IMG/VR virus record: IMGVR_UViG_3300045110_000277
Location: 1-64,000 of that record
From: a virus
Strand: one strand, 5' to 3'
DNA: 64,000 nucleotides
The notes beneath the pieces are model-generated. The model was not told the origin of the DNA. It made no database searches and saw only the letters and a program-made list of their open reading frames with translations. Below, in pieces: positions 597 through 63,482 of this stretch. Each line of letters begins with the position of its first letter. Position 1 is the first letter of the stretch. Both the position numbers and the translations under genes were made by a program.

Positions 597-622
597 CAGA
601 TCAGATCCGGAGTTGCCGATCC
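597..622 (+). promoter_or_regulatory. Putative sigma28/WhiG-type promoter for the lysin operon
   Basis: CAGAT-N13-GCCGATCC upstream of the 661 and 804 genes. Confidence 0.55.
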
Positions 623-660
623 ACCTAGGACCTGCCCGAGAAAGCGTCCTAGGAGGACCT

Positions 661-807
661 GTGACCGAACCCGCGCTCGACCCGGACCTCGCCATCGGCG
701 AGCTGGCCGAGACCGACAACACCGCCAAGGCGTCCGACGGCGACCAGCACGTCGCCCAGGAGCCCGGCAGCGCGTACGACCCGACCGGTGAGCCGGTGGA
801 GGCGTGA
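661..807 (+). CDS. Small acidic hypothetical protein
   Basis: AGGAGG RBS before GTG at 661; GTGA overlap with the endolysin start. Confidence 0.7.
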   Translation: MTEPALDPDLAIGELAETDNTAKASDGDQHVAQEPGSAYDPTGEPVEA

Positions 808-1577
808 CCACCGCCCAGCAGTACCTCGCGGTCCAGCGCGGCCAGCTCGGGCAGGGCGAGACGCCCGACGGGTCGAACCACACCATCTACGGCGCCTTCA
901 CGGGCTACCAGAACCAGCCCTGGTGCGGGTCCTTCCAGCTGTGGGCCGCCCATCAGGCCGGTCTCGTGCTGCCGCCCAACGTCAGCCCGGCGCTGGTCTA
1001 CACCCCGGCCGGTGCCGCGGCGTACCAGAAGGACGGTCGCTGGTCGGCCACGCCGATGGTCGGGGCCCACGTCTTCTACCGCTGGCCCGGCTCCAGCCGG
1101 ATCGACCACGTGGAGTGCGTCGAGTCGATCCTGCCCGACGGCAGCTTCTACGCCCTCGGCGGGAACGTCTCGAACCGGGTCATGCGTACCCACCGGTCCC
1201 ACGACAGCGTGGTTGGCTTCGGCCTGCCGGTCTACACCATCGCCCCGCTGCCCCCGGGCCCGCCGCCGGCGCCGCACCCGGTCGGCACGACCCGCGTCTC
1301 GCTGAGCGCGGTCATCGCCGCGGCCAAGCACGACGCCCCGGCGGCCGGTCAGCCGACCGAGCACAAGGTGGACGTGCTCCCGGTGGAGAGGGCGCTGGCC
1401 GCTGAGCACCTGCTGGCCAGCCAGTACGTGGACGGCTCCTTCGGCAAGATGACCATCGCGGCGTACGCGGGCTGGCAGCGCCACTGTGGCTACCAGGGCG
1501 TGGACGCGAACGGCGTGCCTGGCAGCGCCTCCCTGATCAAGCTGGGCGCTCGCCACGGGTTCGTCGTCGTTCGGTGA
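804..1577 (+). CDS. Endolysin: CHAP-like amidase/peptidase domain plus C-terminal peptidoglycan-binding domain
   Basis: QPWCGSF (catalytic Cys), DHVE (His), GGN; Pro linker; VDGSFGKMTIAAYAGWQR...ANGVPG PG-binding repeat. Confidence 0.85.
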   Translation: MTTAQQYLAVQRGQLGQGETPDGSNHTIYGAFTGYQNQPWCGSFQLWAAHQAGLVLPPNVSPALVYTPAGAAAYQKDGRWSATPMVGAHVFYRWPGSSRIDHVECVESILPDGSFYALGGNVSNRVMRTHRSHDSVVGFGLPVYTIAPLPPGPPPAPHPVGTTRVSLSAVIAAAKHDAPAAGQPTEHKVDVLPVERALAAEHLLASQYVDGSFGKMTIAAYAGWQRHCGYQGVDANGVPGSASLIKLGARHGFVVVR

Positions 1578-2527
1578 TCGTCGACCTGTTCGCGGGCGCC
1601 AGTGGGTGGGCCACTGGTGCTCGCGGACTCGTCGAGGGCATCGTCGGGGTCGAGCTCGATCCGCAGGCGGCGCAGACGCACCGCAACGCCCACGGCGCTC
1701 GCTCGGTGATCGAGACCGACGTGCGCTTCGTGAACCCGAACCGGGTCAGCAACGGTCAGTGGGTGGAGGGCCTCATCAGCTCCTCGCCGTGCCAGACGTT
1801 CTCCCGGGCCGGGAAGATGTCCGGCATCCCGCAGGTGCCCAACCTGGTGGACGCGGTGGCGCTGATGGGCGCTGGCGCACCGTTCAAGGAGGCGGTGGCG
1901 ACCACCGGGCTGTCCAGCGCGGACGAGCGCACCCTGATGGCGCTGGAGACGATGCGCTGGATCCACGCCCTCGACGCCGGCGGCCAGAAGCTCGCGTGGG
2001 TCGTGATGGAGCAGGTGCCCTTGGTGCTGCCGGTGTTCCAGGCGTACGAGGAGGTGCTGCGCTCGCGCGGCTTCTCCACCTGGACCGGCCAGGTGAACAG
2101 CGTCGACTTCGGCGTCGCCCAGGACCGGACCCGGGCGGTGATGCTGGCCAGCCGGCTACGCACCGTGGCCAGGCCGTACATCGAGACCCCGAAGCTGGCC
2201 ATCGCGGACGTGCTCGACCTGAGCCACATCCCGGCCGACGCACGGCTCAAGACCGGCAGCTGGGGTGCGGGTGCGACCCGCGGTCGGCCGTTGGTGGATC
2301 GTTCCAGCCCTAGCCCGACGCTGGCGTTTGGGAAAGACTCCAGCGGTTGGGAGTGGGTGGTCGAAGGAGCAAAGACCACCTACCCGCTCACGACGACGGA
2401 CATGGCCCTGCTCCAGGGGTTCCCTGCCGACTTCCCTTGGGCAGGACCACGTACGGCTGTCGTACGACAGATCAGCAACGCCATCCCGCCGCCGTTGGCC
2501 CGGGAGATCTTGCACGCTGTCACCTAG
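1574..2527 (+). CDS. DNA cytosine-C5 methyltransferase (orphan)
   Basis: Motif I VDLFAGASG, motif IV SSPCQTFS, VI MEQV, VIII QDRTR, IX-X LLQGFP...QISNAIPP. Confidence 0.92.
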   Translation: MIVDLFAGASGWATGARGLVEGIVGVELDPQAAQTHRNAHGARSVIETDVRFVNPNRVSNGQWVEGLISSSPCQTFSRAGKMSGIPQVPNLVDAVALMGAGAPFKEAVATTGLSSADERTLMALETMRWIHALDAGGQKLAWVVMEQVPLVLPVFQAYEEVLRSRGFSTWTGQVNSVDFGVAQDRTRAVMLASRLRTVARPYIETPKLAIADVLDLSHIPADARLKTGSWGAGATRGRPLVDRSSPSPTLAFGKDSSGWEWVVEGAKTTYPLTTTDMALLQGFPADFPWAGPRTAVVRQISNAIPPPLAREILHAVT

Positions 2528-2536
2528 GAGGGCACG

Positions 2537-3700
2537 TTGACGTACTCAGACCAGCTCGGTCCCATCGGGGCTGCTGCTGACGCCCAAGTGCAGGGCCTGC
2601 TGAACCAGGTCGCTTCACTGACGGCCTCGCTCACCGCGGCACAGGCCCAGCACGCCGCTGACCTGCAGACCATCGCGGCGGAGACGGCCACCATCACCGG
2701 TGACCAGGCTCAGATCGACGCGCTGAACGCGAAGGTCGCCGACCTGGCCGCCAAGCTGGCTGCCGACGAGGCGATCTTGCACCCGCCGCCCCCGCCCCCT
2801 CCGCCGCCGCCCCCGCCCCCGCCTCCCCCTCCGCCCCCGCCGCCCGCGGTCACGCTCAGCGGCAGCGCGTACATCTCCGGCCAGGAGAGCGCGTGGGAGC
2901 AGATGGAGGCGATGTGCGGCAAGCCGCTGGACTCCCGGCGGTCATACCACTCGCCGGGCGCGCTGCCGGCGACGCTCGCCCAGACCGAGGCCGGCATCGA
3001 CATCGGCAAGCGCCGCTCGGTGTGGTCGATGAAGGGCCTGACCGGCAACGGGAACACCGACTGGGCCTTCATCGCCTCAGGCGGTCAGGACGCCCAGATC
3101 CTCGCGGTGCTGCGGTCGAACCCGCTGGACCACGAGCTGGACCTGATCACCCACCACGAGCCCGACGGCGGTGGCGGTGGCTCGTACCAGGACGGCCCGT
3201 TCGCCGACTACCGGGCGATGAGCAAGCACGTGCGCACGCTCGTGGACCTGGTGAACGGTGAGCGGCTGGCCAAGTCGGCCACCGCGAAGAAGATCCGGTA
3301 CGGCGCGGTGTGGATGACCTTCACGCTGATCCGCACCGACGCCCCGTTCAAGGGCACCGCCCTGGCCGACCAGTGGTACCCCGGCGACGGCGTGTTCGAC
3401 TTCATCTACTGGGACGGCTACAACGTCCACGTCACCACGAAGGCGATGCAGACCGCGGGCGCGATCTTCAACGCGGCGCTGGCGTACACCCAGAGCAAGC
3501 CCGGGGTCGGCTTCGGGATCACCGAGTACGGCAACTTCGCCGGCTTCACCGTCGCCCAGCGCGCTGCGGACATCGTGGCGTGGCGGGCGTACTGCAAGAG
3601 CGTGAAGGCCCAGGTGAGCATGTACTTCAACGTCATGCCCGCCGGGTCGTACGACTGGAGGCTCACCGACAACAGCGAGTACCAGGCGCTGGTGAGCTGA
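2537..3700 (+). CDS. Coiled-coil + 21-Pro linker + GH26-like (clan GH-A) glycoside hydrolase domain
   Basis: HHEPD, WYPGDGVFDFIYWDGYN and ITEYG motifs typical of GH26-like TIM barrels. Confidence 0.7.
   Translation: MTYSDQLGPIGAAADAQVQGLLNQVASLTASLTAAQAQHAADLQTIAAETATITGDQAQIDALNAKVADLAAKLAADEAILHPPPPPPPPPPPPPPPPPPPPPAVTLSGSAYISGQESAWEQMEAMCGKPLDSRRSYHSPGALPATLAQTEAGIDIGKRRSVWSMKGLTGNGNTDWAFIASGGQDAQILAVLRSNPLDHELDLITHHEPDGGGGGSYQDGPFADYRAMSKHVRTLVDLVNGERLAKSATAKKIRYGAVWMTFTLIRTDAPFKGTALADQWYPGDGVFDFIYWDGYNVHVTTKAMQTAGAIFNAALAYTQSKPGVGFGITEYGNFAGFTVAQRAADIVAWRAYCKSVKAQVSMYFNVMPAGSYDWRLTDNSEYQALVS
2783..2845 (+). repeat. (CCN)21 polyproline-coding tract
   Basis: 21 consecutive Pro codons. 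Confidence 0.95.
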
Positions 3701-3725
3701 GATCCGCCGGCGGCCGCACCGATAC
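3699..3725 (+). promoter_or_regulatory. Putative sigma28/WhiG-type promoter (leaderless)
   Basis: GAGAT-N14-ACCGATAC, ATG at 3732; a palindrome copy at 3736-3753 follows. Confidence 0.5.
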
Positions 3726-3731
3726 CCAGCC

Positions 3732-3863: not shown

Positions 3864-3885
3864 CCGTGCTCAAAGGTCCTAGGAT
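3856..3885 (+). promoter_or_regulatory. Housekeeping (sigmaA/HrdB-type) promoter, leaderless
   Basis: TTGCCT-N18-TAGGAT, ATG 6 nt downstream; GCTCAAAGG motif in the spacer. Confidence 0.55.
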
Positions 3886-3891
3886 GGGCGC

Positions 3892-4362
3892 ATGGCTGAC
3901 CCGTACGCCCTCGACCTCGCGTGGTACGACGCCGCGCAGGACAAGCACAAGCGGCTGACCGCGCCGATCTTGAACCTGAGCGGCACCAAGAACAGCACGG
4001 GCGACCACTTCGAGATCACCGTCGAGGCGGAGCCAGCGGTGGTGGACCTCGCGGTCGGCCGGGTCTACCAGGTCACGCTGGAGACGCCCGCCAAGGCGCT
4101 CGCCAAGCAGCTCGACTGCGTGATGGTCAGCGCGACGCTCCAACGCACGGCGAGCAACCAGCCCGACAACATGATTCTGATCTTCGAGGATGTCGCAGGG
4201 TTCAAGCTCGGCACGGGCACTACGTTCGGCGACCTGGGGCGCGAGATGCCCAAGCCGCCGAAGTTCAGCTCCATCGAGGAGGCAGACGCCTGGATGGAGA
4301 AGCACGAGGAGCGCGCCACCGGGGCGCTCGACAAGATCCTGGGCAAGAGGAGCAACCGATGA
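3892..4362 (+). CDS. Hypothetical protein with PPKFxxxEEADAW motif
   Basis: Good codon bias, ATGA overlap with the next gene. Confidence 0.75.
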   Translation: MADPYALDLAWYDAAQDKHKRLTAPILNLSGTKNSTGDHFEITVEAEPAVVDLAVGRVYQVTLETPAKALAKQLDCVMVSATLQRTASNQPDNMILIFEDVAGFKLGTGTTFGDLGREMPKPPKFSSIEEADAWMEKHEERATGALDKILGKRSNR

Positions 4363-4852: not shown

Positions 4853-4879
4853 AAGTTCGCGCCGGTCTCGTGCCGATAG
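4853..4879 (+). promoter_or_regulatory. Putative sigma28/WhiG-type promoter
   Basis: AAGTT-N14-GCCGATAG upstream of the 4901 gene. Confidence 0.65.
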
Positions 4880-4900: not shown

Positions 4901-5170
4901 ATGGCACTCACGCCTGGCACGTACACGCAGGGCTCAGCGGTCAGCGACGCCGAGACCGGCTGGGGCGACAGCTCGGCTGACAGCAAGACCGGCGGCCCGT
5001 ACTTCCAGGACGCCGTGATCTCGCCGGTCACCGTGGCCGACGGCACGCTGCGCCAGCGGTTCGACCTCAAGTGCTACCCGCAGAAGGGCATCACCGCCCT
5101 GGGCACCGACTCCGACGGTGCGGCGGCTCCGGCCACCGCGAAGACCGTCTACGGCGCCACCAGCCACTGA
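4901..5170 (+). CDS. Hypothetical (possibly virion) protein
   Basis: GAGGAG RBS, ATG, strong GC3 bias. Confidence 0.7.
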   Translation: MALTPGTYTQGSAVSDAETGWGDSSADSKTGGPYFQDAVISPVTVADGTLRQRFDLKCYPQKGITALGTDSDGAAAPATAKTVYGATSH

Positions 5171-5442: not shown

Positions 5443-6507
5443 ATGGCAGCTCCCACCCTGACCGCGGTCTCCCCGGCTTCTGCTGAGGCGGGCAAGGCCA
5501 CCACGGTCGTCCTGACCGGCACGGGCCTCGGCACCGCCCTCGTCCCGGCTGTGACCGCCTCCGGCGGCTGCACGGTGGGCACGGTGACCGGCCTGGCCGG
5601 CACGTCCATCAGCTTCACGCTCACGCCCCCGGTCGGGGCGCCGGCGGGCGTGGCGCCGACCCTGACGGTGAAGACCCGGCACACGATCTCCAACGTCGTC
5701 CTGACCAGCAACGTGGTCACGGTCACGGTGGAGTCCGGCCACTCGATCATGGTCGGCGACTCGGTGGCTGTGGTCGCCGTGACGAACACGGCCATCAACG
5801 GCACCTTCACGGTGACGGCGGCCGACGCGACCACGTTCAGCTACGCACTGACCCACGCCAACATCACCACGGGCGCGGACACCGGCACGGTGGTGGACAA
5901 CACCGCCGTCACCCACGCGGGCCCGGTCCTGCGGCCCGGCGGCGCCTCGACCCAGCCGTACTACAACACGATCCCGGGCACCGTCCTCGCGGCGGACTCG
6001 GCGGTCGGGCAGACCACGGAGACCTCGGTCGACGTGGAGAACCCGTTGAACGGCAAGGTCCTGTCGAGCGCCACGGCGAACAGTCAGTCGGCGAAGCAAT
6101 GGACCGACAACGGCTCCGGGCTGCAGCCGGCCGAGCCCGTCGCGGCGACCAACCCGGCCGTGGCGATGGACTCCCGCCTGCAGGAGACGGACCTGTCGGG
6201 CGTGGGCCTGGGCGACTACGTGCAGCAGCACGCCTACAGCTTCCCGCTGGTCAACAAGGTGCTCACGTCCAACGTGGCCACCCTGACCACGGCGCAGGCG
6301 CACGGCTTCACCGTCGGCCAGGTCGTCACCGTCGCCGGGATCGACTCGATCTTCAACGGCGCCTTCACCATCACGGCGGTGACCAGCACGACCTTCTCGT
6401 ACGCCAAGACCCACGCGGACGTGGGCACCGCAGCCATCACGGCCGGGACCGTGACGGGCACCTTCGCGGACCGTCCCAGCAGGATCCCGGCCCCTTCGGT
6501 GGGGTAG
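5443..6507 (+). CDS. Virion-associated beta-rich protein: IPT/Ig-like N-terminus plus two LTSNV beta-domains
   Basis: APTLTAVSPAS...VVLTGTGL (IPT-like); two copies of LTSNV..T...H....G..V.VA.....NG.FT.TA...TTFSYA.THA. Confidence 0.7.
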   Translation: MAAPTLTAVSPASAEAGKATTVVLTGTGLGTALVPAVTASGGCTVGTVTGLAGTSISFTLTPPVGAPAGVAPTLTVKTRHTISNVVLTSNVVTVTVESGHSIMVGDSVAVVAVTNTAINGTFTVTAADATTFSYALTHANITTGADTGTVVDNTAVTHAGPVLRPGGASTQPYYNTIPGTVLAADSAVGQTTETSVDVENPLNGKVLSSATANSQSAKQWTDNGSGLQPAEPVAATNPAVAMDSRLQETDLSGVGLGDYVQQHAYSFPLVNKVLTSNVATLTTAQAHGFTVGQVVTVAGIDSIFNGAFTITAVTSTTFSYAKTHADVGTAAITAGTVTGTFADRPSRIPAPSVG

Positions 6508-12315: not shown

Positions 12316-12859
12316 CGGGGCGCGCCAGGCACAGTGGGAGCAGGCCCGCACCCTGTACCCGAGCACCGAGTACCAGTCGCGGGTCTGGGCGGACTACTTC
12401 GACGAGCATCCGGACGTGCTGACCAAGCTGCTCGGGGACGTGTACCGGGTCTACAAGACCGAGGAGGCCAAGCGCGCCGGCGTCTCCAACCCGCAGGGTG
12501 GCCGGCGTCGTTCGCACGTGAACGGCAACCTGGACGAGCTGTGGGCCATCCTGACGCCGAAGTTCTCGATGGACCCGTTCCCGGTGGCGGTGCGCGAGCT
12601 GATGGGCAAGAAGTCGGTGCGCCAGTTCGCTGCGGACGTGGGCATGGACCACCGCGAGCTGAGCCGGCTGCTGAACGGCGCTCGCCGCCCCAGCATGATC
12701 CACTGGCTGGAGGTGATTGCCCGCGGAGCTGATGTGCATCCGGCGTTCTTCCTGGAGTGGCGGACGGCAACGCTCGTTGGCATCATGGCCGACGCCTTCG
12801 CGTCGCAGCCGCATCTGTCGATCACCGCGCTGAAGGCTCTGGGGAGGCGACCGGCGTGA
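12308..12859 (+). CDS. XRE-family HTH DNA-binding protein
   Basis: SVRQFAADVGMDHRELSRLLNGARRPS...LEVIARGADVHPAFF. Confidence 0.75.
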   Translation: MADGARQAQWEQARTLYPSTEYQSRVWADYFDEHPDVLTKLLGDVYRVYKTEEAKRAGVSNPQGGRRRSHVNGNLDELWAILTPKFSMDPFPVAVRELMGKKSVRQFAADVGMDHRELSRLLNGARRPSMIHWLEVIARGADVHPAFFLEWRTATLVGIMADAFASQPHLSITALKALGRRPA

Positions 12860-14487
12860 GCGTCGTCGCCGCCCTGACCGAGGAGGAGATGTACCTCCTC
12901 GCCATCATCGACGACCCGTCGGGCATCGAGCTGGCCGAGTTCTGCTTCCTCGACGAGGAGCCCGGCAAGGCCGACCCGTGCTTCCGGGTCCGCGACTATC
13001 AGTGGGCGTGGTGGACCAACGAGGAGCGGTATCAGATCGACCACTGTTCCCGAGACGTGGGCAAGAGCCAGGGCATCCAGCTGCGGGCGTTCGCGTTCCC
13101 GTTCAACTTCCCTGGTCAGGAGATGCTGGTCACCGCGCCGGAGCTGAACCACCTCTCGCCCATCGTCGACAAGATCGAGAAGTTGTTCCTGCGTGTTCGT
13201 TTGGGCAGGGAGATGCTCCCGCCGCGCAAGGGTGGTGGCATCAAGCACCAGCCGCAGTTCCAGATGACCTTCATCAACGGCGCGGTCATCATGGGCCGGC
13301 TGCCCAACCGCGACGGCCGTGGCGTCAAGGGCCAGCACTCCCACCGCATCGAGATGGACGAGGCGCAGGACTACCCCCAGCAGGGCTGGATGGAGCTCGT
13401 CGAGACGATGCGCGACACCCCGGGTGCTCAGTGGCGTGCGCACGGCGTGAGCCGCGGCATCCGGGATATGTACTACCGGCTGACGCAGAGCGAGAACCCG
13501 GACTTGCCGTTCTACGTCCATCGCTTCATGGCCATGCACCGGCCGGGCTGGTCAGCGCGGGAGCGCAAGAGCAAGATCGCCATCTACGGCGGCTCGCGGG
13601 ACAACCCGGACTACAAGCGCAACGTGTACGGCGAGCACGGCGACATCAGCAACCCGGTGTTCGTGCTCGCGCGGCTCATGGCGTGCGTGCGGATCAACGA
13701 GAGCACGTGGGCCACGGAGTACAACGAGAACGTCTACGCCAAGATCAAGATCGAGGCGGAGTCGCTTGAAGGCCGACCGATCACGACGTTCCTGCAGTTC
13801 CCGGCGAACCACCGCTCGACGGCGTACAAGAGCTACTGGGCCGGCATCGACATCGGCTTCACCAACGACCCGAGCGAGCTGCTGATCTTCGGCCAGGTCA
13901 ACGTCAAGGACAAGGACGTGCTGCGGCTGCTCTCGCGTGTCCACATGATGCGGATCAGCTCACCGGACCAGGAGGCGGTCATCGCCTCGGTCTTCGAGTT
14001 CTACGGCGACCGGCTGCGCACGCTGTCCATGGACAAGACCGGCAACGGCCTGCCGATCTGGCAGCACATGGCCCTGGACCCGCGGCACCGCGGCTACCGG
14101 GACCGGATCAAGGGCTACGGCTTCAGCGAGAAGAAGGCCGTCGAGTTCGACGACCGGGCGCTGGAGCGCAAGGAGAAGCCCGAGGACGCGGTGATCGAGA
14201 AGAACGTCATCGAGTTCGCCACGGACCAGCTGCGCGCCTACGTGGACGCCGGCATGGTCGAGCTGCCGTACGACCAGGAGCTGCTGAGCGAGTTCCAGGG
14301 CCAGACCGTGCTCTACACCCGGGACGACACCGACGTGGGCAAGAGGCGGACCCGGTACGGCGGTGGGTCCTTCCACACCCTGGACGCCAGCAAGCTGATG
14401 ATCTTGGGCAAGGAGCTGGAGGCCATCGAGGCCGCCCTCGCCCCCAAGCGCCGACGGGGACCTGTGCTCGACCGATTCGCATCCTGA
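12856..14487 (+). CDS. Terminase large subunit
   Basis: Walker A CSRDVGKS, Walker B IEMDEAQD, nuclease AGIDIG..DP, MDKTGNG, HTLDA. Confidence 0.9.
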   Translation: MSVVAALTEEEMYLLAIIDDPSGIELAEFCFLDEEPGKADPCFRVRDYQWAWWTNEERYQIDHCSRDVGKSQGIQLRAFAFPFNFPGQEMLVTAPELNHLSPIVDKIEKLFLRVRLGREMLPPRKGGGIKHQPQFQMTFINGAVIMGRLPNRDGRGVKGQHSHRIEMDEAQDYPQQGWMELVETMRDTPGAQWRAHGVSRGIRDMYYRLTQSENPDLPFYVHRFMAMHRPGWSARERKSKIAIYGGSRDNPDYKRNVYGEHGDISNPVFVLARLMACVRINESTWATEYNENVYAKIKIEAESLEGRPITTFLQFPANHRSTAYKSYWAGIDIGFTNDPSELLIFGQVNVKDKDVLRLLSRVHMMRISSPDQEAVIASVFEFYGDRLRTLSMDKTGNGLPIWQHMALDPRHRGYRDRIKGYGFSEKKAVEFDDRALERKEKPEDAVIEKNVIEFATDQLRAYVDAGMVELPYDQELLSEFQGQTVLYTRDDTDVGKRRTRYGGGSFHTLDASKLMILGKELEAIEAALAPKRRRGPVLDRFAS

Positions 14488-14828: not shown

Positions 14829-14956
14829 CTCTAGGGAGTTCTGGCCGGGTCTAGGACCGGTGTTGCGGCGGAACGCAACAGGCTGCGAACGGCCGTTGGC
14901 ATCCCGCGTCTTCGTCGACTGGGAGCAGATCACCACCAAATCGGAGCAGATCCGAG

Positions 14957-14983
14957 CAGATTCCGAGCTGAACCTGCCGAAGG
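14957..14983 (+). promoter_or_regulatory. Putative sigma28/WhiG-type promoter for the portal operon
   Basis: CAGAT-N14-GCCGAAGG, ATG 6 nt downstream. Confidence 0.6.
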
Positions 14984-14989: not shown

Positions 14990-15388
14990 ATGCCCAAGGG
15001 AGTCGTCGCCGGTACGGATTCCGGCGGGTACGTCGAGCAGGCTGGCGTCGACCCGGCGCTGCTGGCCGCCCTGGCCGGCGAGATGGCCCCGCTGCGGACG
15101 GGCGTTGGCAGCCGGGTCGAGGTGCTCCAGGAGCTGATGGCGATCAAGGCGGCCATCTGCACGTGGCACCGCAAGGAGGTCGGCCAGGTCCTCCAGGAGG
15201 CCAGCGCCTACTCGGCCCGGCTCACCGAGCTGTGGACCGAGCTACGGCTGCTGGAGTCCTCCGACCGGGCGTTCACCCAGCTCCGCACGATGCAGGTCCA
15301 GCCGGTGCTCGATGAGGTCGACCGGCAGTACCGCTTCGCCACGTCCCGCATCGCGCTGATGCGCCAGGACATCGACCTGAGCCGGTAG
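14990..15388 (+). CDS. Hypothetical helical protein
   Basis: Clean ORF between the RyR gene and the portal. Confidence 0.7.
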   Translation: MPKGVVAGTDSGGYVEQAGVDPALLAALAGEMAPLRTGVGSRVEVLQELMAIKAAICTWHRKEVGQVLQEASAYSARLTELWTELRLLESSDRAFTQLRTMQVQPVLDEVDRQYRFATSRIALMRQDIDLSR

Positions 15389-15397: not shown

Positions 15398-17191
15398 ATG
15401 CCTGTCGAGGTCGTCTACAGCCCGGGAGCCGAGGAGTTCCGCGACGCCGGCCTGGAGCCCAGGATGCGCCAGATGGCGGCGCAGCTCACGTCGTGGGTGA
15501 ACCAGACCCGTGCGGTCACGAACCGGTCCGGGCTGTTCGACCGCGGGAAGTACACGTCGAGCGACAACCCGTACGACCAGATGCGCACCGCTCGTCGCGC
15601 GCTGAGCGACGACGACGTGGTGGCCGGCGCCGCCGAGCTGACTGAGGGCATGGCCTTCCAGGGCATCAAGTGGGAGTCCGCCAACGCGGACGAGACCGAC
15701 CTGATGAACCAGATCGCGGCCGAGCACGACCTGGACTCCATCGTGCGCAAGATGTGGCGCGAGGAGTTCACGCTGTCCTCGGTCGTGCAGGGCTTCTGGT
15801 GGGACAACGGCAAGTTCACGGTGCGCGGTACGACGCCGGTGGAGAAGCCGGAGATCGACCCGGCGACCGGGCAGCCGAAGGAGGACCCGGCCAAGCCGCC
15901 GAAGGGTGGGAACAAGCGCAAGAAGACGTACGACGTGTGGTTCCCGCGCAGCATCACCACGCTCGACAGCACCAAGGTCGTGCCGGTCGGGATGATGCAG
16001 TTCGGCCAGGAGCGGCTCGCGTGGCAGGCCACCACGCAGGAGATCGCGCAGTACGACATGCTGATGAACGGTGCGCTGCAGGACGAGATGATGGACCGGT
16101 TCTACGCCGGGAAGTACGTCTGCCGCGACATCGACGAGCAGCGCGAGCTGACCGGGCTCGGCGTGGACGTGACCCGGCTGATCCTGCTCGACGACCGCTG
16201 GACGCACCGGCACACGCTGACCAAGCCGGACCACGAGCGGTTCGCTGACGTGCGGCTCAAGAGCATCTTCCGGCTGCTCGACCTCAAGCAGCAGCTGATG
16301 GAGGCCGACCGCGTGCAGCTGATCGGCGCGGCCAACTACATCCTGCTGGTCAAGAAGGGCGACAAGGACGACCCGGCGTACCCGGAGGAGATCACCAACC
16401 TCCAGCAGAACTTCAACTACATCGCCAAGCTCCCGGTCATCTTCGCCGACCACCGACTGACCATCGAGATCATCACGCCGAAGACGGACCTGTCGCTGTC
16501 GCCGGAGAAGTACGACGTGCTCGACAACCGCATCATCGCGCGGCTGCTGAACACGCTGACGGCCGTTGGCAGCCGCTCTGGTCAGCGCGGCGACGACTCC
16601 CTCAAGCTGGGCCGCGCGGTGGCCCGCACGATGGAGGGCCGCCGCCACATGATCAAGCGGTACCTGGAGCGTCACGTCGCCAAGGCCATGTGGGACGACC
16701 CCAAGAACAAGGGCAAGTTCCAGGGTGAGCCGCCCAAGCTGACGTTCCTGCCGGGCCGCATCCAGCTCGACGACGACACCGGCTGGCTGGCCAGCATCAT
16801 CCAGCTGCGCAGCATGAACGAGCTGTCCCGCGCCACGACGCTGGAGGTGTTCGGGTTCGACCAGCAGGTCGAGGCGATGCGCCGTACGTTCGAGGACGAG
16901 AACGGCATGGACGACATCTTCCAGACGATGGTGCCGCACGGCTCGCCCGGCGTGGGCGGGAACACCGGCGCCGCGTCCGGCAACCCGACCGCCGAGGAGA
17001 CCGCTGCTGCCGCTGGGCAGACGGCCGAGGCCACGGCGGCTGGCGCAGCGAAGGGCGCTCCCCCGGTGGCGCAGGCCGGCGCGGGCCGGCAGGGCGGTCG
17101 GCCGGCTGGCGGCGGCACGGCCAAGAAGACCGCGGCGACTCGTCGAACCGCCAAGGGCACCACGAGCACCTCGAAGGGCGGTTCCACCTGA
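15398..17191 (+). CDS. Portal protein (putative)
   Basis: About 600 aa, downstream of TerL and upstream of protease/capsid; low-complexity C-tail. Confidence 0.7.
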   Translation: MPVEVVYSPGAEEFRDAGLEPRMRQMAAQLTSWVNQTRAVTNRSGLFDRGKYTSSDNPYDQMRTARRALSDDDVVAGAAELTEGMAFQGIKWESANADETDLMNQIAAEHDLDSIVRKMWREEFTLSSVVQGFWWDNGKFTVRGTTPVEKPEIDPATGQPKEDPAKPPKGGNKRKKTYDVWFPRSITTLDSTKVVPVGMMQFGQERLAWQATTQEIAQYDMLMNGALQDEMMDRFYAGKYVCRDIDEQRELTGLGVDVTRLILLDDRWTHRHTLTKPDHERFADVRLKSIFRLLDLKQQLMEADRVQLIGAANYILLVKKGDKDDPAYPEEITNLQQNFNYIAKLPVIFADHRLTIEIITPKTDLSLSPEKYDVLDNRIIARLLNTLTAVGSRSGQRGDDSLKLGRAVARTMEGRRHMIKRYLERHVAKAMWDDPKNKGKFQGEPPKLTFLPGRIQLDDDTGWLASIIQLRSMNELSRATTLEVFGFDQQVEAMRRTFEDENGMDDIFQTMVPHGSPGVGGNTGAASGNPTAEETAAAAGQTAEATAAGAAKGAPPVAQAGAGRQGGRPAGGGTAKKTAATRRTAKGTTSTSKGGST

Positions 17192-18798
17192 TGGACACCA
17201 AGGACCGGATGGCGAACGGGACGTACCCGATCACCAACCAGAAGCAGGCCAAGGCGGCCTGGGACCTGCGCGGGTCCAGCAAGACGTACTCCGAGGCCGA
17301 GGTGGTCTCGCACATCCGCGCGCAGGTCGCCAAGCACGGGCTGGAGATGCCCGCCGACAAGGTGGCCCCGAAGCAGAAGGCCGCTGCTGTCCCGCCGCAC
17401 GGCTTCATCTGGCCCGAGGGGATGCCCGACTGCTCGCTGTGCGACCGGACGGCCAACGATCCGGTCCACGTCAACCCGCCCCGCAACCCGCAGCGGTTCG
17501 GGGAGAGCACGTACCGCACCGAGGCGTCCGACAAGAACCCGAACCCGTCGATGCCGGTGCGCTCCCACGCCTACACCCCGAACGTGAACATGATCACGAA
17601 CCGGGTGCTGTGCCAGGGCTGCGGGGAGAACCTCGGCAACGGCATCCACGTGGTCGGGATGCCCGCCGGGATGGTCCCGTCCAGCTCGAACTCGGGCATC
17701 TGGGGTGCCGGGCAGACTGCGGTGGGCGCCGGGGGCTCACCGTTCGGCGCCGGGCCGCAGCTGGCGGAGCTGTCCGCGCATCGGTTCGAGCCGATGGACG
17801 GCCACGACGGCTGCGGGCTGGGCTGTGGGCTGCCGAGCTCGGACGAACTGCACACGCGAACGCCCGTTCGCACCCAGCCGAGGCAGCAGGCCGACCTCTC
17901 CGACGGCTCCGCCTACGACCAGGCGCAGCGCGCCCTGGCCCTGATGGCCATCGCCGACGAGGCGCTCGACCAGGCCCAGCCGCTGCTGGCTGCCGCCCTC
18001 GGGATGCCCAACCCGGACTCCGACGATGAGCCGGTGCGGGTGGCTGCCCAGGTCGCCTTCGTCTCCGAGATCGGTCAGAAGCTGGTCTTCGCGGCGCCCG
18101 GGTCCACCGGCTTCGACGTGTCGTCGCTGCCCCGGGAGATCGCCGCCGGCTTCCAGCGGGCGAGCGCGGCCAACCCCTACAACCTGTGGGTGACGGGGCG
18201 CTACGTCGAGGCGGACCGGCCGAACCGCAACGCGGCGTACTGGTCCACCGCTGACCTGGAGGTCGGCCAGCCGTCGGTTGCGCACGGGCCGATCAACTGG
18301 AACCACCAGGAGAAGGAGATCATCGGCTGCATCGCGGCGACCGAGCTGGTCAAGGTCGAGCGCCAGGCCGCCTCCGACGTGGGCAGTCACATCGTCGCGC
18401 TCGCCGCGGTGTGGGGCTTCATCTACCCGGAGCGGGCCCGCGCGGTGCAGAAGGCGTCGGAGGACCAGAAGCTCTGGTACTCGATGGAGTGCATCAGCCG
18501 GGAGGTCGCGTGCCTGTCGGGTGACTGTGGTGTGGTGCTCCCGTACCGCGACTACATGACGCGGCAGACCTCGCGCTGCGAGCACATGCTGGGCGGCGCA
18601 CCGCGCCGGTTCGTGGACCCGGTGTTCGGCGGCGGGGCCATGATCGTCCCGCCAGTACGGCCCGGGTGGGCAAATGCCGATGCACGGGTGATGAAGCAGG
18701 CGGCCGCGTTGGCCGAACGACAGGCAGCCGCCTTCGGCGACCTGACCACCTCAGAAGCCGAGCTGCTGGTGGCCCAGCTGATCGGGACAGGAGAGTAG
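17191..18798 (+). CDS. Capsid maturation protease-like protein with multi-module N-terminus
   Basis: PNRN...PINWNH...IIG...WYSMEC C-terminal domain; position between portal and scaffold. Confidence 0.55.
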   Translation: MDTKDRMANGTYPITNQKQAKAAWDLRGSSKTYSEAEVVSHIRAQVAKHGLEMPADKVAPKQKAAAVPPHGFIWPEGMPDCSLCDRTANDPVHVNPPRNPQRFGESTYRTEASDKNPNPSMPVRSHAYTPNVNMITNRVLCQGCGENLGNGIHVVGMPAGMVPSSSNSGIWGAGQTAVGAGGSPFGAGPQLAELSAHRFEPMDGHDGCGLGCGLPSSDELHTRTPVRTQPRQQADLSDGSAYDQAQRALALMAIADEALDQAQPLLAAALGMPNPDSDDEPVRVAAQVAFVSEIGQKLVFAAPGSTGFDVSSLPREIAAGFQRASAANPYNLWVTGRYVEADRPNRNAAYWSTADLEVGQPSVAHGPINWNHQEKEIIGCIAATELVKVERQAASDVGSHIVALAAVWGFIYPERARAVQKASEDQKLWYSMECISREVACLSGDCGVVLPYRDYMTRQTSRCEHMLGGAPRRFVDPVFGGGAMIVPPVRPGWANADARVMKQAAALAERQAAAFGDLTTSEAELLVAQLIGTGE

Positions 18799-19837: not shown

Positions 19838-19896
19838 CGCCCTGCGGCCCGACGGCCGTTGGCATCTCCAGTGGGTGCCAACGGCCGTTCGCACGT

Positions 19897-19922
19897 CAGT
19901 TGCGGCTCCCTAGTGCCGATAT
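19897..19922 (+). promoter_or_regulatory. Putative sigma28/WhiG-type promoter for the scaffold-capsid operon
   Basis: CAGTT-N13-GCCGATAT; two palindrome copies (19847-19864, 19876-19893) lie just upstream. Confidence 0.65.
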
Positions 19923-22079: not shown

Positions 22080-22128
22080 GAGAGGGTCCCTGCCTTGTGG
22101 TCTTAGGCAGGGGCCCTCTCCGTTTGTT
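22080..22128 (+). terminator. Intrinsic terminator after the capsid gene
   Basis: GAGAGGGTCCCTGCCT...AGGCAGGGGCCCTCTC followed by CGTTTGTT. Confidence 0.8.
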
Positions 22129-22149
22129 CGGGCCCCGCCCGGCCGATAT
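22124..22149 (+). promoter_or_regulatory. Putative sigma28/WhiG-type promoter
   Basis: TTGTT-N13-GCCGATAT. Confidence 0.5.
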
Positions 22150-22167: not shown

Positions 22168-22407
22168 ATGAGCGGCGAGGAACGTGAGTTCGACCCGGAT
22201 GACCCGTCCAAGATCATGCGGGTGTACCTGAGCAAGGTCGAGAACGGCGTGGAGTCCACCGCCGAGATCTCCGTCCCGGGCCCCTACCACCCCGAGATCC
22301 TCGAAGACCTGTGCCGCAAGGCGCTGATCACCCTGGGCGGCATCTTCTCCGAGGAGGAGACCGCCGACTACCTCCAGGAGATGTTCGACGAAGATCCGGC
22401 GCCCTAG
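22168..22407 (+). CDS. Small acidic hypothetical protein
   Basis: GGAGG RBS + ATG. Confidence 0.65.
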   Translation: MSGEEREFDPDDPSKIMRVYLSKVENGVESTAEISVPGPYHPEILEDLCRKALITLGGIFSEEETADYLQEMFDEDPAP

Positions 22408-22417
22408 CCGCCGAAGA
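22391..22417 (+). promoter_or_regulatory. Putative sigma28/WhiG-type promoter
   Basis: AAGAT-N14-GCCGAAGA. Confidence 0.55.
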
Positions 22418-22468
22418 CCTCGGTACTGCACCTGCCGCCCCCTGCAAAGGGCACACCGAGGAGACCCG

Positions 22469-22999: not shown

Positions 23000-23073
23000 G
23001 ACCTGCGGGGGGCCGCTGGCTGCCGCACCTGGGCGATGCAGGCGCCCGACCGCGACCGAGCCGCGGCCCCCCG

Positions 23074-23100
23074 CAGATACCCCACCCCTGCAGCCGATGA
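23074..23100 (+). promoter_or_regulatory. Putative sigma28/WhiG-type promoter
   Basis: CAGAT-N14-GCCGATGA. Confidence 0.65.
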
Positions 23101-23132
23101 CCTGATCAGACCGCTCCAGGGAGGACCGCCTG

Positions 23133-23912: not shown

Positions 23913-23914
23913 CC

Positions 23915-24271: not shown

Positions 24272-24280
24272 GAGCTGAGC

Positions 24281-24736: not shown

Positions 24737-24742
24737 GCCGCC

Positions 24743-26607: not shown

Positions 26608-26634
26608 CAGATGACCCTTCCGCCGAGCCGATAG
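26608..26634 (+). promoter_or_regulatory. Putative sigma28/WhiG-type promoter (leaderless)
   Basis: CAGAT-N14-GCCGATAG, ATG 7 nt downstream. Confidence 0.7.
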
Positions 26635-29826: not shown

Positions 29827-29853
29827 CAGTTCCCTGCCGTCCCGAGCCGATGA
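29827..29853 (+). promoter_or_regulatory. Putative sigma28/WhiG-type promoter (neck operon)
   Basis: CAGTT-N14-GCCGATGA, ATG 7 nt downstream. Confidence 0.7.
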
Positions 29854-32531: not shown

Positions 32532-32558
32532 AAGTTCGATCCCCGACTCCGCCGAAAC
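32532..32558 (+). promoter_or_regulatory. Putative sigma28/WhiG-type promoter for the tail tube gene
   Basis: AAGTT-N14-GCCGAAAC followed by AAGGAGG RBS. Confidence 0.65.
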
Positions 32559-48244: not shown

Positions 48245-48271
48245 CAGATTCGCCCCGGCTGGGGACGATGG
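48245..48271 (+). promoter_or_regulatory. Putative sigma28/WhiG-type promoter for the holin operon
   Basis: CAGAT-N14-GACGATGG; palindrome copy at 48282-48299 just downstream. Confidence 0.5.
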
Positions 48272-48314
48272 ACACATGAGATGCGAACGCTCGTTGGCGG
48301 GGAGGAACTGGGTC

Positions 48315-48827
48315 GTGACGATGCTGGGCTTGGGGCTTCCCGATCTGCCTCCACACCCGGCCACGGCCGGAGCGTCCCTGGTCGTTAGCGGGGTCGGCAC
48401 CGTCGTCGCGGTCCTCAGCTCCACCATCGAGGAGAATGCAGCCGTTCGCAGCATCCTGTTCATCGGTGGCATCTGCGCCGCCCTGGCCGGCATCGCGGTA
48501 CTGGCCCGCACGGTGGCCAAGGGCGCGTTCTGGGGCGTCCGGGCAGCGGACGGCATGGGGGACTTGATGGGTGACCCGAAGGCGAATCCGCCCGTCCCTG
48601 GTCTGGGCGACCGGATGGAGCGGATGGAGGCCACGGTCGACGACGTGCAGCGAACGCTCAAGGGCAAGGTGGAGCAGGACGCTGCGCGAGCCGAGCAGGA
48701 CGACGAGCGGTGGCGCAAGGTCGACCAGATGCACGACCGACAGACCGAGATCCACGACTTGCTCAGCAAGCTCGCAGGGAACGCCGGACCGGCTGACCGC
48801 GAGCCCCCCGATGAGGAGCTTGCCTGA
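48315..48827 (+). CDS. Membrane protein with coiled coil (lysis accessory)
   Basis: Two hydrophobic segments, G.P...PGL..RM.RME motif; start could be 48276. Confidence 0.65.
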   Translation: MTMLGLGLPDLPPHPATAGASLVVSGVGTVVAVLSSTIEENAAVRSILFIGGICAALAGIAVLARTVAKGAFWGVRAADGMGDLMGDPKANPPVPGLGDRMERMEATVDDVQRTLKGKVEQDAARAEQDDERWRKVDQMHDRQTEIHDLLSKLAGNAGPADREPPDEELA

Positions 48828-49189
48828 TGGCTGACCACGCAGCGCCCGGCACCGGATGGCTGAACCTGCTCGACAAGGTACCTCCGGCCGTGCGGCACGC
48901 CCTCATCCTGCTCATCGGTGCTGGCCTGAGCTACGCCTCGGCGCACCTGCCGGACCTGCACCTCCAGCAGCCGTACCCGAACTTGCTCGGCGGCGCGCTG
49001 GCGATGCTCCTGCTGATCGTCACCCCGCTCACCTCGCAGTACGGCGTGGGCAAGAAGGTGGACGACGCGGCCCAGGCCCAGGCGGACCTGGACGCAGCCG
49101 TACAGCTCGTGCTGGGGGCGGCCAAGGACGCTGCAGCTGCCAAGCTGGGCGCGCCAACGGACGTTGCCGTCCAGCCTCCTGTGGCATAG
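48827..49189 (+). CDS. Holin (putative, 2 TM)
   Basis: Two TM helices, TPLTSQYGVG; end of the tail operon. Confidence 0.65.
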   Translation: MADHAAPGTGWLNLLDKVPPAVRHALILLIGAGLSYASAHLPDLHLQQPYPNLLGGALAMLLLIVTPLTSQYGVGKKVDDAAQAQADLDAAVQLVLGAAKDAAAAKLGAPTDVAVQPPVA

Positions 49190-49619: not shown

Positions 49620-50047
49620 CTCACATCGTGGACAATCTTGAGCCCGAGTCTGGGTCCATTTGAGCGTAGACGGGCTGCCAACGCTCGTTGACATAGGTAC
49701 TTTGGGCTAGGACCTTGCGCTCTGTCGGACCCTGTGGTTAGAGTCCGGGTCACTCGTTCGGCCGGTTCGCATCCCCCGTCGTTCCGGCTGGATGGGGCTC
49801 CTCCCGGGAGAGCGGGTCTCGCTTCACCCCGGGAGGGGCATCAACTTCACAGGTCGGTGACGACCACCAGGCACGCGGCAAGAGCCGGTGCGTGGGCCAT
49901 CCCCGAGAAGACTCGGAGGGCGGCGATCAAGGTAGGGCTTCGGCCCTGTCCTGGTCGTCGCCCTTTGCGTTACTCGGGAGCGGCCATGCACACGCTCGGC
50001 GTCATTGCGTTCGTCATCACATGCCTGTTCATTGCGGCCCTCGCGCT

Positions 50048-61671: not shown

Positions 61672-61955
61672 CGAGGCCGATGAGTAGGTGCGTCCACGTC
61701 TGGCTGGGTCACATCTGCCTGGCGTGCGGCGCGTGGGACGGCAAGGACATGGAGGGCAGCTCTGAAGAACCTGCCGGCGGCCCAGGTGGCTGACCTAGAC
61801 GCCAACGACCGTTCGCAGGGGCCGACATGCCTGGAGGTGTTGGTCTTCAGGGCTGGCGAGGTCTTCCCGGAGGACCACGGCGACATCGTGATCGGCTGCG
61901 ATCTGCTCATCGACGGGCACGTGGAGCACGCGGGCGACGGCTGGAGGTGGACCGG

Positions 61956-62330
61956 GTGAGTCACCTGCGCCTGGTCCAGCCGTACTCGAAGGACGAGCAG
62001 ACCGGCGACGGTGACGCTCAAGCAGAGACGAAGGCGGTGCCAGCGGCCGTTCGTGCCGCGGTGCTGGAGCGAGATGGCCACAGCTGCCGGGTATGCGGGT
62101 CGTACGCGAAGGAGCCCGCGGTCCACCACATCAGCTACCGCTCGGAGGGCGGGCTGCACGTGGTGGAGAACCTGGTCACGGTCCACTGGATGTACGAGCC
62201 CCGGTGCCACGAGAGGGCACACGCAGACAAGGGCCTGTGGCAGCCGCTGCTGGCCGAGGTCGTGAAGCACGACGGGATGACCGCCATGGGCCTGCTGAGG
62301 CGCTACCGGGCAGCACAGGGGTGCTCGTGA
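61956..62330 (+). CDS. HNH endonuclease
   Basis: VLERDG..C..CG...VHHI..RS.GG....NL......CH..AH. Confidence 0.85.
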   Translation: MSHLRLVQPYSKDEQTGDGDAQAETKAVPAAVRAAVLERDGHSCRVCGSYAKEPAVHHISYRSEGGLHVVENLVTVHWMYEPRCHERAHADKGLWQPLLAEVVKHDGMTAMGLLRRYRAAQGCS

Positions 62331-62551
62331 CGTACCGCGAGCCTCCCGAGGGCTGGTTGCAGTTCGGCACGCACGCCGTGCTGCCCATCGTCCCGCCGCT
62401 GCTGTTCAGCGAGGAGCGGGATGAGGTGGGAGATCCGCTCTGGGAACGGGCGTTGACACCCAAGGATGTCGCCGACTTCCTCTGGAGCATCGGCCACGTG
62501 ACCTCGTTCACCGCCGTGCGCGACCACTACAAGCTGAAGTGGACCTCGTGA
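62327..62551 (+). CDS. Hypothetical protein
   Basis: GTGA overlaps. Confidence 0.45.
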   Translation: MTYREPPEGWLQFGTHAVLPIVPPLLFSEERDEVGDPLWERALTPKDVADFLWSIGHVTSFTAVRDHYKLKWTS

Positions 62552-62711
62552 GCCGGCACGCGCGGGACGCCAGCGACCATCCGTACGCGGAGGCGTTGGA
62601 GTGCCTCGACGAGCTGACCCAGATGCTGCTGGACACCGCGCGGGACGTGGAGTGGGCCAGGCAGGGCGGCTGTTACCCGTGGGAGTACCCGAAGCCTGGA
62701 GGTAGGCACGC

Positions 62712-63458
62712 ATGACAGACCTGGCCGAGACGTGGGCCGAGTACGGAGCCACCCGCAGCCCGGTGGCGAGGGACGCCCTGATCTTGGCGTACCGCCCGCT
62801 GGTCAGGTACGTGGCGGCCCGGCTGGCCCAGGGCCTGCCAGCGTCCGTTGAGGTCCAGGATCTCGCCAGCTACGGGGTCTTCGGGCTGATCGACGCCATC
62901 GAGAAGTACGAGATCGGGCGGGTGAAGTTCGAGACGTACGCGATCCAGCGGATCCGAGGAGCCATCCTCGACGAGCTTCGAGCCCTGGACTGGGCGCCAA
63001 GGTCCGTTCGCAGCAAGGCTCGTGCCATCGAGCGTGAGCTCAGCCGGCTGGAGCACGAGCTCGGGCGCACCCCGTCGGAGGAGGAGCTGGCAACGGCCGT
63101 TGGCGTTTCGGCGCAAGACCTGCGCCGCAGCTTGAGCCAGCTCCGCCTGGCCCAGACGGACAGCCTGGACCGCAGCGTGGCCGGGCCGGACGACACGGGC
63201 TCGACGCTGGCCGACCGGGTGGAGGACCGTTCGGACATCACGTTGACTCCGCAGATGGAGGAGGCCGGACGCCTGCTTTCTGAGGGTATTGCTCGACTTC
63301 CGGACCGCGAACGCACGTTCATGGCCCTGTACTACTTCGAGGGCCTGACGCTGGCGGACATCGGCGTCACCCTGCGGGTCTCGGAGTCGCGGGTCTGCCA
63401 GCTCCATACCCGGGCGGCGGTGGCGCTCCAGCGGATCCTCGCTGGGCAACTGGTCTGA
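62712..63458 (+). CDS. whiG: RNA polymerase sigma factor, FliA/WhiG (sigma28) family
   Basis: LILAYRPLVRYVA.R...GLP..V...DL.SYGVFGLIDAIEK...KFETYA..RIRGAILDELRALDW.PRSVR; LYYFEGLTLADIG..L.VSESRVCQLH. Confidence 0.93.
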   Translation: MTDLAETWAEYGATRSPVARDALILAYRPLVRYVAARLAQGLPASVEVQDLASYGVFGLIDAIEKYEIGRVKFETYAIQRIRGAILDELRALDWAPRSVRSKARAIERELSRLEHELGRTPSEEELATAVGVSAQDLRRSLSQLRLAQTDSLDRSVAGPDDTGSTLADRVEDRSDITLTPQMEEAGRLLSEGIARLPDRERTFMALYYFEGLTLADIGVTLRVSESRVCQLHTRAAVALQRILAGQLV

Positions 63459-63482
63459 GTTCATCGCCCGTTTGGCCGATGA
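63457..63482 (+). promoter_or_regulatory. Putative sigma28/WhiG-type promoter immediately after the sigma gene
   Basis: GAGTT-N13-GCCGATGA. Confidence 0.6.

Follow-up and report, generated by a model that had tools for sequence, protein, structure and literature searches.

The genome of an uncultured high-GC soil phage, represented by IMG/VR record IMGVR_UViG_3300045110_000277, encodes a sigma factor of the FliA/WhiG family and carries 13 copies of a two-box motif at its gene boundaries. We analysed the first 64 kb of this 86,079-bp linear record (hereafter the window, 64,000 nucleotides); the completeness of the record was judged to be 74%. To judge from their sequence, it is almost certain that the 13 sites form a set of sigma-28/WhiG-type promoters, and it is probable that the phage's own WhiG-type sigma reads them as an early-to-late switch. 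The phage would make this sigma-28 family protein from the end of its rightward replication block, and the protein would bind the host core RNA polymerase. The holoenzyme would then recognise 13 promoters, each built as (c)(t)CA-GWT(C), 12-13 nucleotides, GCCGA(T/A)(A/G). Under their control would come the lysis genes, the modules for head, tail and fibres, the genes of two membrane proteins and the pair of genes directly after the sigma gene. Transcription would begin 8 nucleotides after the last base of the -10 octamer (7 intervening nucleotides), and at 26642, 29861 and perhaps 14990 the mRNA would start at the start codon, that is, it would be leaderless. The outcome would be a turn from early to late transcription.

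The sequence feature is real. A preliminary description of the window, made from the letters alone, had listed 13 places with the motif NAG(A/T)T-N13/14-GCCGA(T/A)R or single-base variants of it, and each of them carries the motif at the position given. Ten have the exact form AGWT-N13/14-GCCGAW and three are single-base variants (ACCGA at 3699, TTGTT at 22124 and GACGA at 48245); the final purine does not hold at 597, which ends in GCCGATC. In the complete record, the + strand has 10 copies of the exact form and the - strand has none, while in 300 dinucleotide-preserving shuffles, counted on both strands together, the mean was 0.62 and the maximum 3. When the spacer was varied from 5 to 25 on the + strand, there were 3 matches at 13, 7 at 14 and 0-2 at each other spacing. 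A chance or compositional effect of a genome with 68% G+C therefore has next to no probability, and it was rejected by the shuffle test: the bipartite pattern is far above expectation, is confined to one strand and is specific in its spacing. What could suggest such an effect is the -10 half taken by itself. GCCGAWR alone has 111 copies, mostly within genes, where 38 are expected, and the density of GCCGA[ATC] upstream of genes is not above that inside genes, so that the -10 box alone is unusable for counting promoters. It is the two-box arrangement, not the heptamer alone, that carries the signal. A search for enriched hexamers in the upstream regions of five genomes gave noise only, and a scan of five genomes that asked whether CGA boxes keep a fixed distance from the start codon behind them gave no clear peak at 7 nucleotides, codon periodicity being the dominant effect.

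A position weight matrix was trained on the 13 sites and then scored on the same sites, which makes the gap to the remaining sequence meaningful but not the absolute scores. The 13 sites score from 16.4 to 23.7, while nothing else on the two strands scores above 14.5. From this clear gap it follows that the earlier reader had found the whole set. The spacers of the sites are unrelated to each other (mean pairwise identity 0.34), so the signal is a bipartite one and not a repeated element. In a gene map based on G+C content at third codon positions, the + strand is the coding one up to 64.8 kb and the - strand from 64.9 kb onwards, and each of the 13 sites falls between genes or at the edge of one, as had been described. 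The motif is also missing from the replication genes, as had been described: no site scoring at least 14.5 is found within 49.4-62.7 kb, and none precedes the nuclease, AAA_24 ATPase or primase-helicase genes. Between 64.9 and 86 kb the single place at this level is 68549 (14.5), which is on the + strand, opposite the leftward genes; none is found on the coding strand of the leftward arm.

Both the spacing and the -10 box of these sites correspond to published sigma-28/WhiG promoters. In the excerpted text of PMC12871210 (Denis et al. 2026), the consensus of actinobacterial WhiG2 promoters is T(A/C)AA-N16-GCCGATAA and that of WhiG1 promoters, cited there for Actinoplanes missouriensis, is CTCA-N16-17-GCCGAACT; within the -10 box, CGA at the centre never varies, whereas the last three bases do. 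Following this source, we took as a -10 box a GCCGA in which CGA is invariant and at most one mismatch falls in positions 1-2. All 13 phage boxes have CGA, 11 have GCCGA and two have one mismatch, and the A of AGWT lies 16 or 17 nucleotides before GCCGA at all 13 sites. The phage sites thus share the -10 box and the N16 spacing with actinobacterial WhiG promoters, and, like the WhiG1/FliA type of A. missouriensis, use both N16 and N17. The geometry ascribed to the motif in the preliminary description is therefore borne out. The -35 element has a form of its own. An exact published 4-mer, T(A/C)AA or CTCA, is present in one site of 13 (597, with CTCA-N16-GCCGA), and the conserved core is AGWT(C) and not T(A/C)AA; the 4-mer at the corresponding place has a weak consensus C-T-C-A, and the strongly conserved GWT(C) comes after it. 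In the enterobacterial box TAAAGTTT, GTTT occupies the position that GWT(C) has in the phage sites. Compared with the promoters of FliA from Escherichia coli and Pseudomonas aeruginosa, which likewise combine the GCCGA -10 box with the GC of an extended -10 element, the phage -35 box is 1-2 nucleotides farther from the -10 box.

No recognisable gene of the rightward replication block comes after the sigma gene, whose start overlaps an upstream open reading frame (62539-62715). The Pfam regions Sigma70_r2, r3 and r4 cover residues 23-240 of the 248 residues, and there is no region 1.1. The FliA_WhiG family model TIGR02479 is matched with 229.6 bits (cut-off 189.6), which agrees with the full FliA/WhiG-family sigma that had been reported at this place. 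Unlike WhiG proper, the protein stays below the cut-off of the WhiG equivalog model NF004935 (274.5 bits, cut-off 343). The best solved relative is Streptomyces venezuelae WhiG, a member of the WhiG2 clade (6PFV/6PFJ), with 229 bits to 6PFV and nearly identical regions 2.4 and 3.0. FliA of E. coli and of P. aeruginosa (6PMI, 9WSM) comes next, belonging to the same family but reaching 140-152 bits only. The phage protein lacks the N-terminal extension of S. venezuelae WhiG and is aligned from residue 27 of the 278-residue chain.

The identity of the phage sigma to WhiG-type genes is about 49-55% whether these come from Acidimicrobiia, Geodermatophilaceae or Streptomyces (50-52% for the Streptomyces copies), so that no donor stands out. 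A metagenome scan with the sigma alignment found homologues of up to 52% identity only; six metagenomic proteins (P0002-P0007) are closer, with 55-72%. In a quick tree, rooted on a single outgroup, these six and the phage sigma form a clade of 7 rows (support of 99 in the Shimodaira-Hasegawa-like approximate likelihood ratio test, SH-aLRT). The clade lies within a group of 33 rows (support 88) that also holds the Streptomyces copies and the top copies from Geodermatophilaceae; the second paralogues found in four Geodermatophilaceae genomes, presumed to be WhiG1, stand apart (support 100). The phage sigma appears to be a little-diverged cellular WhiG that would have kept the cellular -10 specificity. 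In one relative, G005, the sigma-bearing block has no syntenic counterpart: there, the homologues of 62.2 kb and 68.8 kb lie only about 2 kb apart, and the sigma gene, a gene of about 90 codons, the gene of a 342-residue protein and three leftward genes (62.5-68.2 kb) are absent. The block looks like an insertion here, or a loss in G005. The capture of a cellular sigma, put forward in the preliminary description, fits both the branching with actinobacterial WhiG-type factors and the absence of the block from its slot in G005.

The residues that read the -10 element are largely conserved. In the P. aeruginosa sigma-28 open complex, as described in the excerpt of PMC12784957, the octamer spans -15 to -8 and the residues that contact it are named. 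We mapped 12 of these named residues, for the -10 and extended -10 elements, via an alignment to chain 9WSM_F. Seven of these 12 are the same in the phage sigma as in P. aeruginosa sigma-28 (R80, R82, L86, R90, D93, R97 and R104). The other five positions are G41, E67, K72, R100 and S101, among which G41, K72 and R100 are the residues of S. venezuelae WhiG. Both residues that contact the -35 element, a Ser and a Gln, are kept. Just before the -35 recognition helix, the clade of the phage sigma has a Ser where 157 of 160 cellular-type homologues, taken from bacterial-genome and metagenome contigs, have Thr. Together with the 12 sites of 13 whose -35 4-mer is not a published one, this clade-specific Ser fits a private -35 specificity.

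The predicted start sites lie as far from the octamer as they do in FliA promoters. At the predicted +1, the eighth base behind the octamer, 8 of the 13 sites have A and 11 have a purine; among 15 offsets, A is most frequent at offset 8 (P = 3e-4, uncorrected for the number of offsets). Four short distances between octamer and ATG had been taken to indicate leaderless messages. The distances are correct (7 nucleotides at 26642 and 29861, 6 nucleotides at 3732 and 14990), but the leaderless case is clean in two of the four only. At 26642 and 29861 the predicted +1 is the A of the start codon, and leaderless mRNAs are predicted from both, while the ATG at 3732 opens an open reading frame of merely 43 codons.

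Relatives of the phage provide a further view of these sites. The capsid gene is common to 27 viral contigs, with 61-84% identity, and the head-tail module is shared. Upstream of the orthologue of the gene starting at 29861, 19 loci gave 13 distinct upstream sequences. In nine of these 13, an xCCGA/GxCGA octamer lies exactly 7 nucleotides before the start codon. Two more are near misses, one at 8 nucleotides and one at 7 nucleotides before an upstream in-frame ATG, and two (L006 and L022) have no octamer. Since the flanks are otherwise unalignable, the octamer and its distance from the start codon are under selection. This kept octamer is the best available support for promoter function and for leaderless starts. 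Boxes are also present upstream of the orthologues of 14990 and 32579 in many relatives, and at 14990 they overlap the ribosome-binding site. The full bipartite box before the scaffold gene is kept in G001, G004 and G005.

The relatives also bring up the main rival of the switch by the phage's own sigma, namely that the boxes are read mainly by a WhiG/FliA-type sigma of the host, the phage copy serving, for example, to boost or re-time the host WhiG regulon or as a back-up. No match to the FliA/WhiG family was found in any of ten relatives' records searched, and a search of five of these records with the Pfam r2 and r4 models gave sub-threshold matches only. Since eight of the ten records are judged to be 36-72% complete, a sigma gene could be missing from the sequenced part; for the remaining two, completeness is judged to be 84% and 92%. 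Boxes in relatives without a detected sigma, the 92% and 84% complete records included, imply that another factor, most simply host WhiG/FliA, can serve such promoters. In G001, G004 and G005, either the sigma genes are off-contig or the promoters are served by host WhiG/FliA. Two further points favour the host factor: the -10 box is the host consensus as the excerpt of PMC12871210 gives it, and the -10-reading residues of the phage sigma are those of cellular WhiG, which makes cross-recognition plausible. On the other hand, the published host-type -35 4-mer is found in only one of the 13 sites, and the rival presupposes that the host has WhiG. Furthermore, the phage that bears the sigma gene has 13 uniform bipartite sites, whereas whole relatives have 2-5 matrix matches on the structural strand, a comparison that is biased by the training of the matrix on the window. 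We consider the host-sigma reading unlikely on balance, though it is the strongest of the rivals. The preliminary description had spoken of the phage sigma's own regulon, and this part cannot be separated from a host-read one, since sigma-less relatives keep the boxes. Its broader claim of a captured sigma serving as the late-transcription switch is supported in part, by the sigma family, the motif geometry, the placement of the sites and the signs of capture.

The reading in which the phage sigma itself serves the 13 sites has several other observations to contend with, beyond the relatives that keep GCCGA boxes at orthologous places without a detected sigma gene. Three of the sites are single-base variants. 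The terminase gene has no promoter-like site of its own. At site 14957 the -10 box overlaps a ribosome-binding site, the octamer at 14976 coinciding in part with a Shine-Dalgarno-like GAAGGAG. The site at 63457 precedes genes that are not recognisably virion genes, and Pfam gave no match for either protein downstream of it. Finally, most of the virion-gene labels come from synteny and position only; a search of PHROGs and Pfam returned no match for most virion-module proteins of the window. The labels portal, neck and tail tube of the preliminary description are thus positional and were not confirmed by any family match; its statement that the sites precede lysis and virion-module genes stands.

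A second dispersed signal, the palindrome SAACGNNCGTTS, has 29 copies in the window where 0.36 are expected. One copy is just upstream of the -35 box at 19897, others are 60-90 nucleotides upstream of sites 597 and 14957, and the copy that follows the -10 box at 48264 is in the predicted 5' region of the message. The copy at 49.68 kb overlaps a TTGACA hexamer. Four relatives (L008, L012, L015 and L028) keep a copy beside the promoter region of the scaffold gene. The palindrome may be the site of a regulator acting on these promoters. Since it adjoins several of the 13 sites, other DNA-binding proteins would act there, and this, with the one octamer that overlaps a ribosome-binding site, could favour a reading in which the motif is the binding site of a non-sigma regulator, or an RNA-level signal, that merely resembles a sigma-28 promoter. 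Such a reading is very unlikely. It would have to account for two boxes with a fixed gap of 13 or 14 nucleotides, unrelated spacers and one orientation in a genome that also encodes a sigma of the matching family, as well as for the location of the sites directly before genes, the A at the predicted +1 and a fixed distance of 7 nucleotides to the start codon across diverged relatives. Features of this kind belong to a promoter.

Table 1 Positions of the 13 sites, the sigma gene and other features of the record; a score is that of the weight matrix.
Feature	Position	Strand	Element or product	Score	Context
Site 597	597..622	+	CTCA-GATC, spacer, GCCGATCC	22.1	before a small gene (GTG 661), then 804-1577, 1574-2527 and 2537-3700
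Site 3699	3699..3725	+	variant -10 box ACCGATAC	20.4	next solid gene 3892-4362
Site 4853	4853..4879	+	AAGTTC-N13-GCCGATAG	22.6	before 4901-5170 and 5443-6507
Site 14957	14957..14983	+	octamer GCCGAAGG	18.5	before 14990-15388, 15398-17191 and 17191-18798 (head module by synteny)
Site 19897	19897..19922	+		23.7 (top)	before Ala/Glu-rich scaffold-like gene (ATG 19972), then 20534-21064 and capsid 21080-22054
Site 22124	22124..22149	+	variant -35 box TTGTTC	16.4 (weakest of 13)	before 79-residue open reading frame (ATG 22168)
Site 22391	22391..22417	+		20.7	before 22469-22999
Site 23074	23074..23100	+		21.8	before 23133-23912 and subsequent genes
Site 26608	26608..26634	+		19.8	octamer ends 7 nucleotides before ATG 26642; predicted leaderless
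Site 29827	29827..29853	+		21.4	octamer ends 7 nucleotides before ATG 29861; predicted leaderless
Site 32532	32532..32558	+		19.4	before 32579-34237 (552 residues, tail module by position)
Site 48245	48245..48271	+	variant -10 box GACGATGG	20.7	before two membrane-protein genes (48276/48315-48827 and 48827-49189)
Site 63457	63457..63482	+		22.3	begins at the stop codon of the sigma gene; before gene of about 90 codons and 63772-64800 (342 residues)
Sigma gene	62712..63458	+	FliA/WhiG-family sigma, 248 residues		end of the rightward replication block
Palindrome copies, examples	507-518, 14887-14898, 19879-19890, 48285-48296, 49679-49690		SAACGNNCGTTS
Endolysin gene	804-1577	+	endolysin		PHROGs
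DNA methyltransferase gene	1574-2527	+	DNA methyltransferase		PHROGs
Head-tail module	about 12.7-47.7 kb	+
Terminase gene	12757-14487	+	terminase		without a promoter-like site of its own
Major capsid gene	21080-22054	+	YonB-like HK97-fold protein		protein atlas score 0.98
Membrane-protein gene	48276/48315-48827	+	two hydrophobic segments		hydropathy scan
Membrane-protein gene	48827-49189	+	one hydrophobic segment		hydropathy scan
Rightward replication block		+	PD-(D/E)XK nuclease, AAA_24 ATPase and primase-helicase genes
Leftward arm	64.9 kb to record end	-	RuvB-like, MoxR/vWA and ATP-dependent ligase proteins

The G+C content varies between 65 and 74% along the window. The capsid protein is 41% identical to that of a gene of the mangrove-soil phage GX15bay, and the terminase and portal genes are syntenic between the two; the head-module genes behind site 14957 are named by this synteny with the GX15bay terminase and portal. 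The GX15bay (L006) gene 22352-25174 (MK557849.1), annotated 'PhoH', is a homologue (39% identity) of the head-module gene 15398-17191 of the window, for whose 597-residue protein neither Pfam nor PHROGs gave a match; the 'PhoH' annotation in GX15bay may be wrong.

Several details of individual sites can be added. Directly 3' of site 3699 is an imperfect palindrome-like stretch, and site 22124 directly follows the hairpin behind the capsid gene. Downstream of site 4853, the gene 5443-6507 has a weak PHROG match to a virion structural protein. The genes behind site 23074 include a weak Pfam Gp80 fibre match (24.3 bits, below the cut-off of 27), and behind site 26608 there is a weak PHROG match to tail fiber assembly. 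The leader predicted at site 32532 has 13 nucleotides and carries AAGGAGG. At site 48245, the ATG at 48276 is only 4 nucleotides past the -10 octamer and upstream of the predicted transcription start; the two-segment membrane protein more likely starts at GTG 48315 or at ATG 48321, behind GGGGAGGAAC. The 342-residue protein encoded after the sigma gene has metallophosphoesterase-like motifs (GDxVEG, GNHG, HGDE and GHYH), seen by eye only.

Other repeated sequences are found near these genes. At 14915-14962, three direct copies of GAGCAGAT(C/T) are located just before the -35 box at 14957 and overlap it, and at the same place upstream of the 14990 orthologue L008 and L024 have two or three copies of GAGCAGAATC. 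In the early and leftward regions, a further box, GTGTCCAAA(C/G)G or in complementary form TTTGGAC, recurs in the gaps between genes at three places, 49298 in the window and 65495 and 74953 of the record. The GTGTCCAAA box is a candidate early promoter or operator element, although three copies are too few to judge. A consensus scan for an early-promoter class gave 0 sites in 46-64 kb, and a scan of the whole record for TTGxxN-N16-18-TAnnnT gave 1 site; early-promoter candidates picked by eye are unsupported.

The phage sigma differs from cellular WhiG at the residues through which WhiG activity is held in check. The excerpted text of PMC12871210 reports that Lys57, Gly61 and Arg62 of WhiG touch the cyclic di-GMP (c-di-GMP) dimer that arms the anti-sigma factor RsiG, and that any side chain at position 61 would clash. 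The numbering of the solved WhiG chain in our alignment reproduces these three residues, and the phage sigma has R32, A36 and R37 in their places. Lys57 and Gly61 of the WhiG2 type are thus replaced, whereas among the 160 cellular-type homologues Lys57 is kept in 158 and Gly61 in 151. In the 7 clusters of the phage-type clade, the position of Gly61 is A, A, V, V, G, G and L, and Lys57 is Arg in all. The residues T235, L236, Y239, E240 and L242, which contact RsiG, correspond to A205, L206, F209, E210 and L212 of the phage sigma, with three of the five identical and two changed. In the same excerpt (PMC12871210), the sigma-4 residues that contact RsiG are conserved in WhiG2 and highly variable in WhiG1. 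The three that the phage protein keeps (L, E and L), and its position outside the presumed WhiG1 paralogues, would set it apart from the WhiG1/FliA type, with whose promoters the phage sites share the weak C-T-C-A of the -35 region. The change from Gly61 to Ala hints at an escape of the phage sigma from the RsiG anti-sigma.

Phage sigma factors that redirect the host polymerase to late genes are textbook knowledge, as in gp28 and gp33/34 of SPO1 and gp55 of T4; large Bacillus phages have sigma genes as well. The phage sigma would resemble these factors, which switch on middle or late genes, in redirecting the host core polymerase to a private promoter set. From actinobacterial WhiG it would differ in its targets, virion and lysis genes in place of whiH/whiI, and, compared with the late flagellar promoters of FliA, there is neither FlgM nor a flagellar context in the phage. 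Among actinophages, RNA polymerase sigma factor genes and repeated intergenic motifs are annotated in Microbacterium phages of clusters EC/EI (PMC7302621), and a preprint mentions a sigma-like DNA-binding protein for Arthrobacter phages of cluster AZ. In a phage collection, 146 records match the phage sigma at E values up to 1, and none reaches 60% identity; named phage sigmas there are at most about 31% identical, and those of Bacillus phages about 24%. No named actinophage is among the best 60 of the 146 matches listed, and a tally of the organisms of all 146 records has ten named groups, none of them actinophage, and 5 groups without a name. A literature search found no paper that links WhiG or FliA in actinophages to a sigma factor encoded by the phage. 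Sigmas of this family are, however, present on other uncultured viral contigs, eight of ten tested passing the FliA_WhiG family cut-off. Six IMG/VR contigs of 46-268 kb (L159-L164) have such sigmas, several of them interior to contigs of 112-147 kb, and in the tree these sigmas branch separately; a quick look by eye near the sigma genes of these six revealed no obvious boxes. In four others (L002, L003, L157 and L158), host-like sigma copies are at or near the contig ends and may be host DNA.

A private phage sigma is familiar, while a WhiG-type sigma together with matching late boxes is new as far as the literature was searched. To the same extent, it is new that a phage would use a little-diverged copy of a developmental or flagellar sigma with cellular -10 specificity, that several of its late messages are predicted to be leaderless and that the residues contacting c-di-GMP and RsiG are changed. 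With one sigma and 13 promoters, the phage offers a compact test system, which may show how -35 specificity drifts after capture. It could also reveal whether the c-di-GMP developmental checkpoint of the Actinomycetota is read, or escaped, by phages, and, if it works as read here, the sigma and its sites would be a candidate orthogonal sigma-promoter pair for high-GC hosts.

The observations can be joined into a wider picture, to which we give tentative and minor credence. In a whole clade of large soil actinophages, the late genes would be under promoters of the WhiG/sigma-28 type, and several would be leaderless. The sigma-less members would depend on the c-di-GMP-gated developmental or motility sigma of the host, which would couple the production of virions to sporulating or swimming. 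The phage described here would have captured a WhiG2-type copy with Gly61 changed to Ala and Lys57 to Arg; with its c-di-GMP contacts changed, RsiG could no longer hold this sigma, and late transcription would be free of the RsiG checkpoint. The system would gain in interest if the clade as a whole did depend on host WhiG and if this sigma did escape control by c-di-GMP and RsiG.

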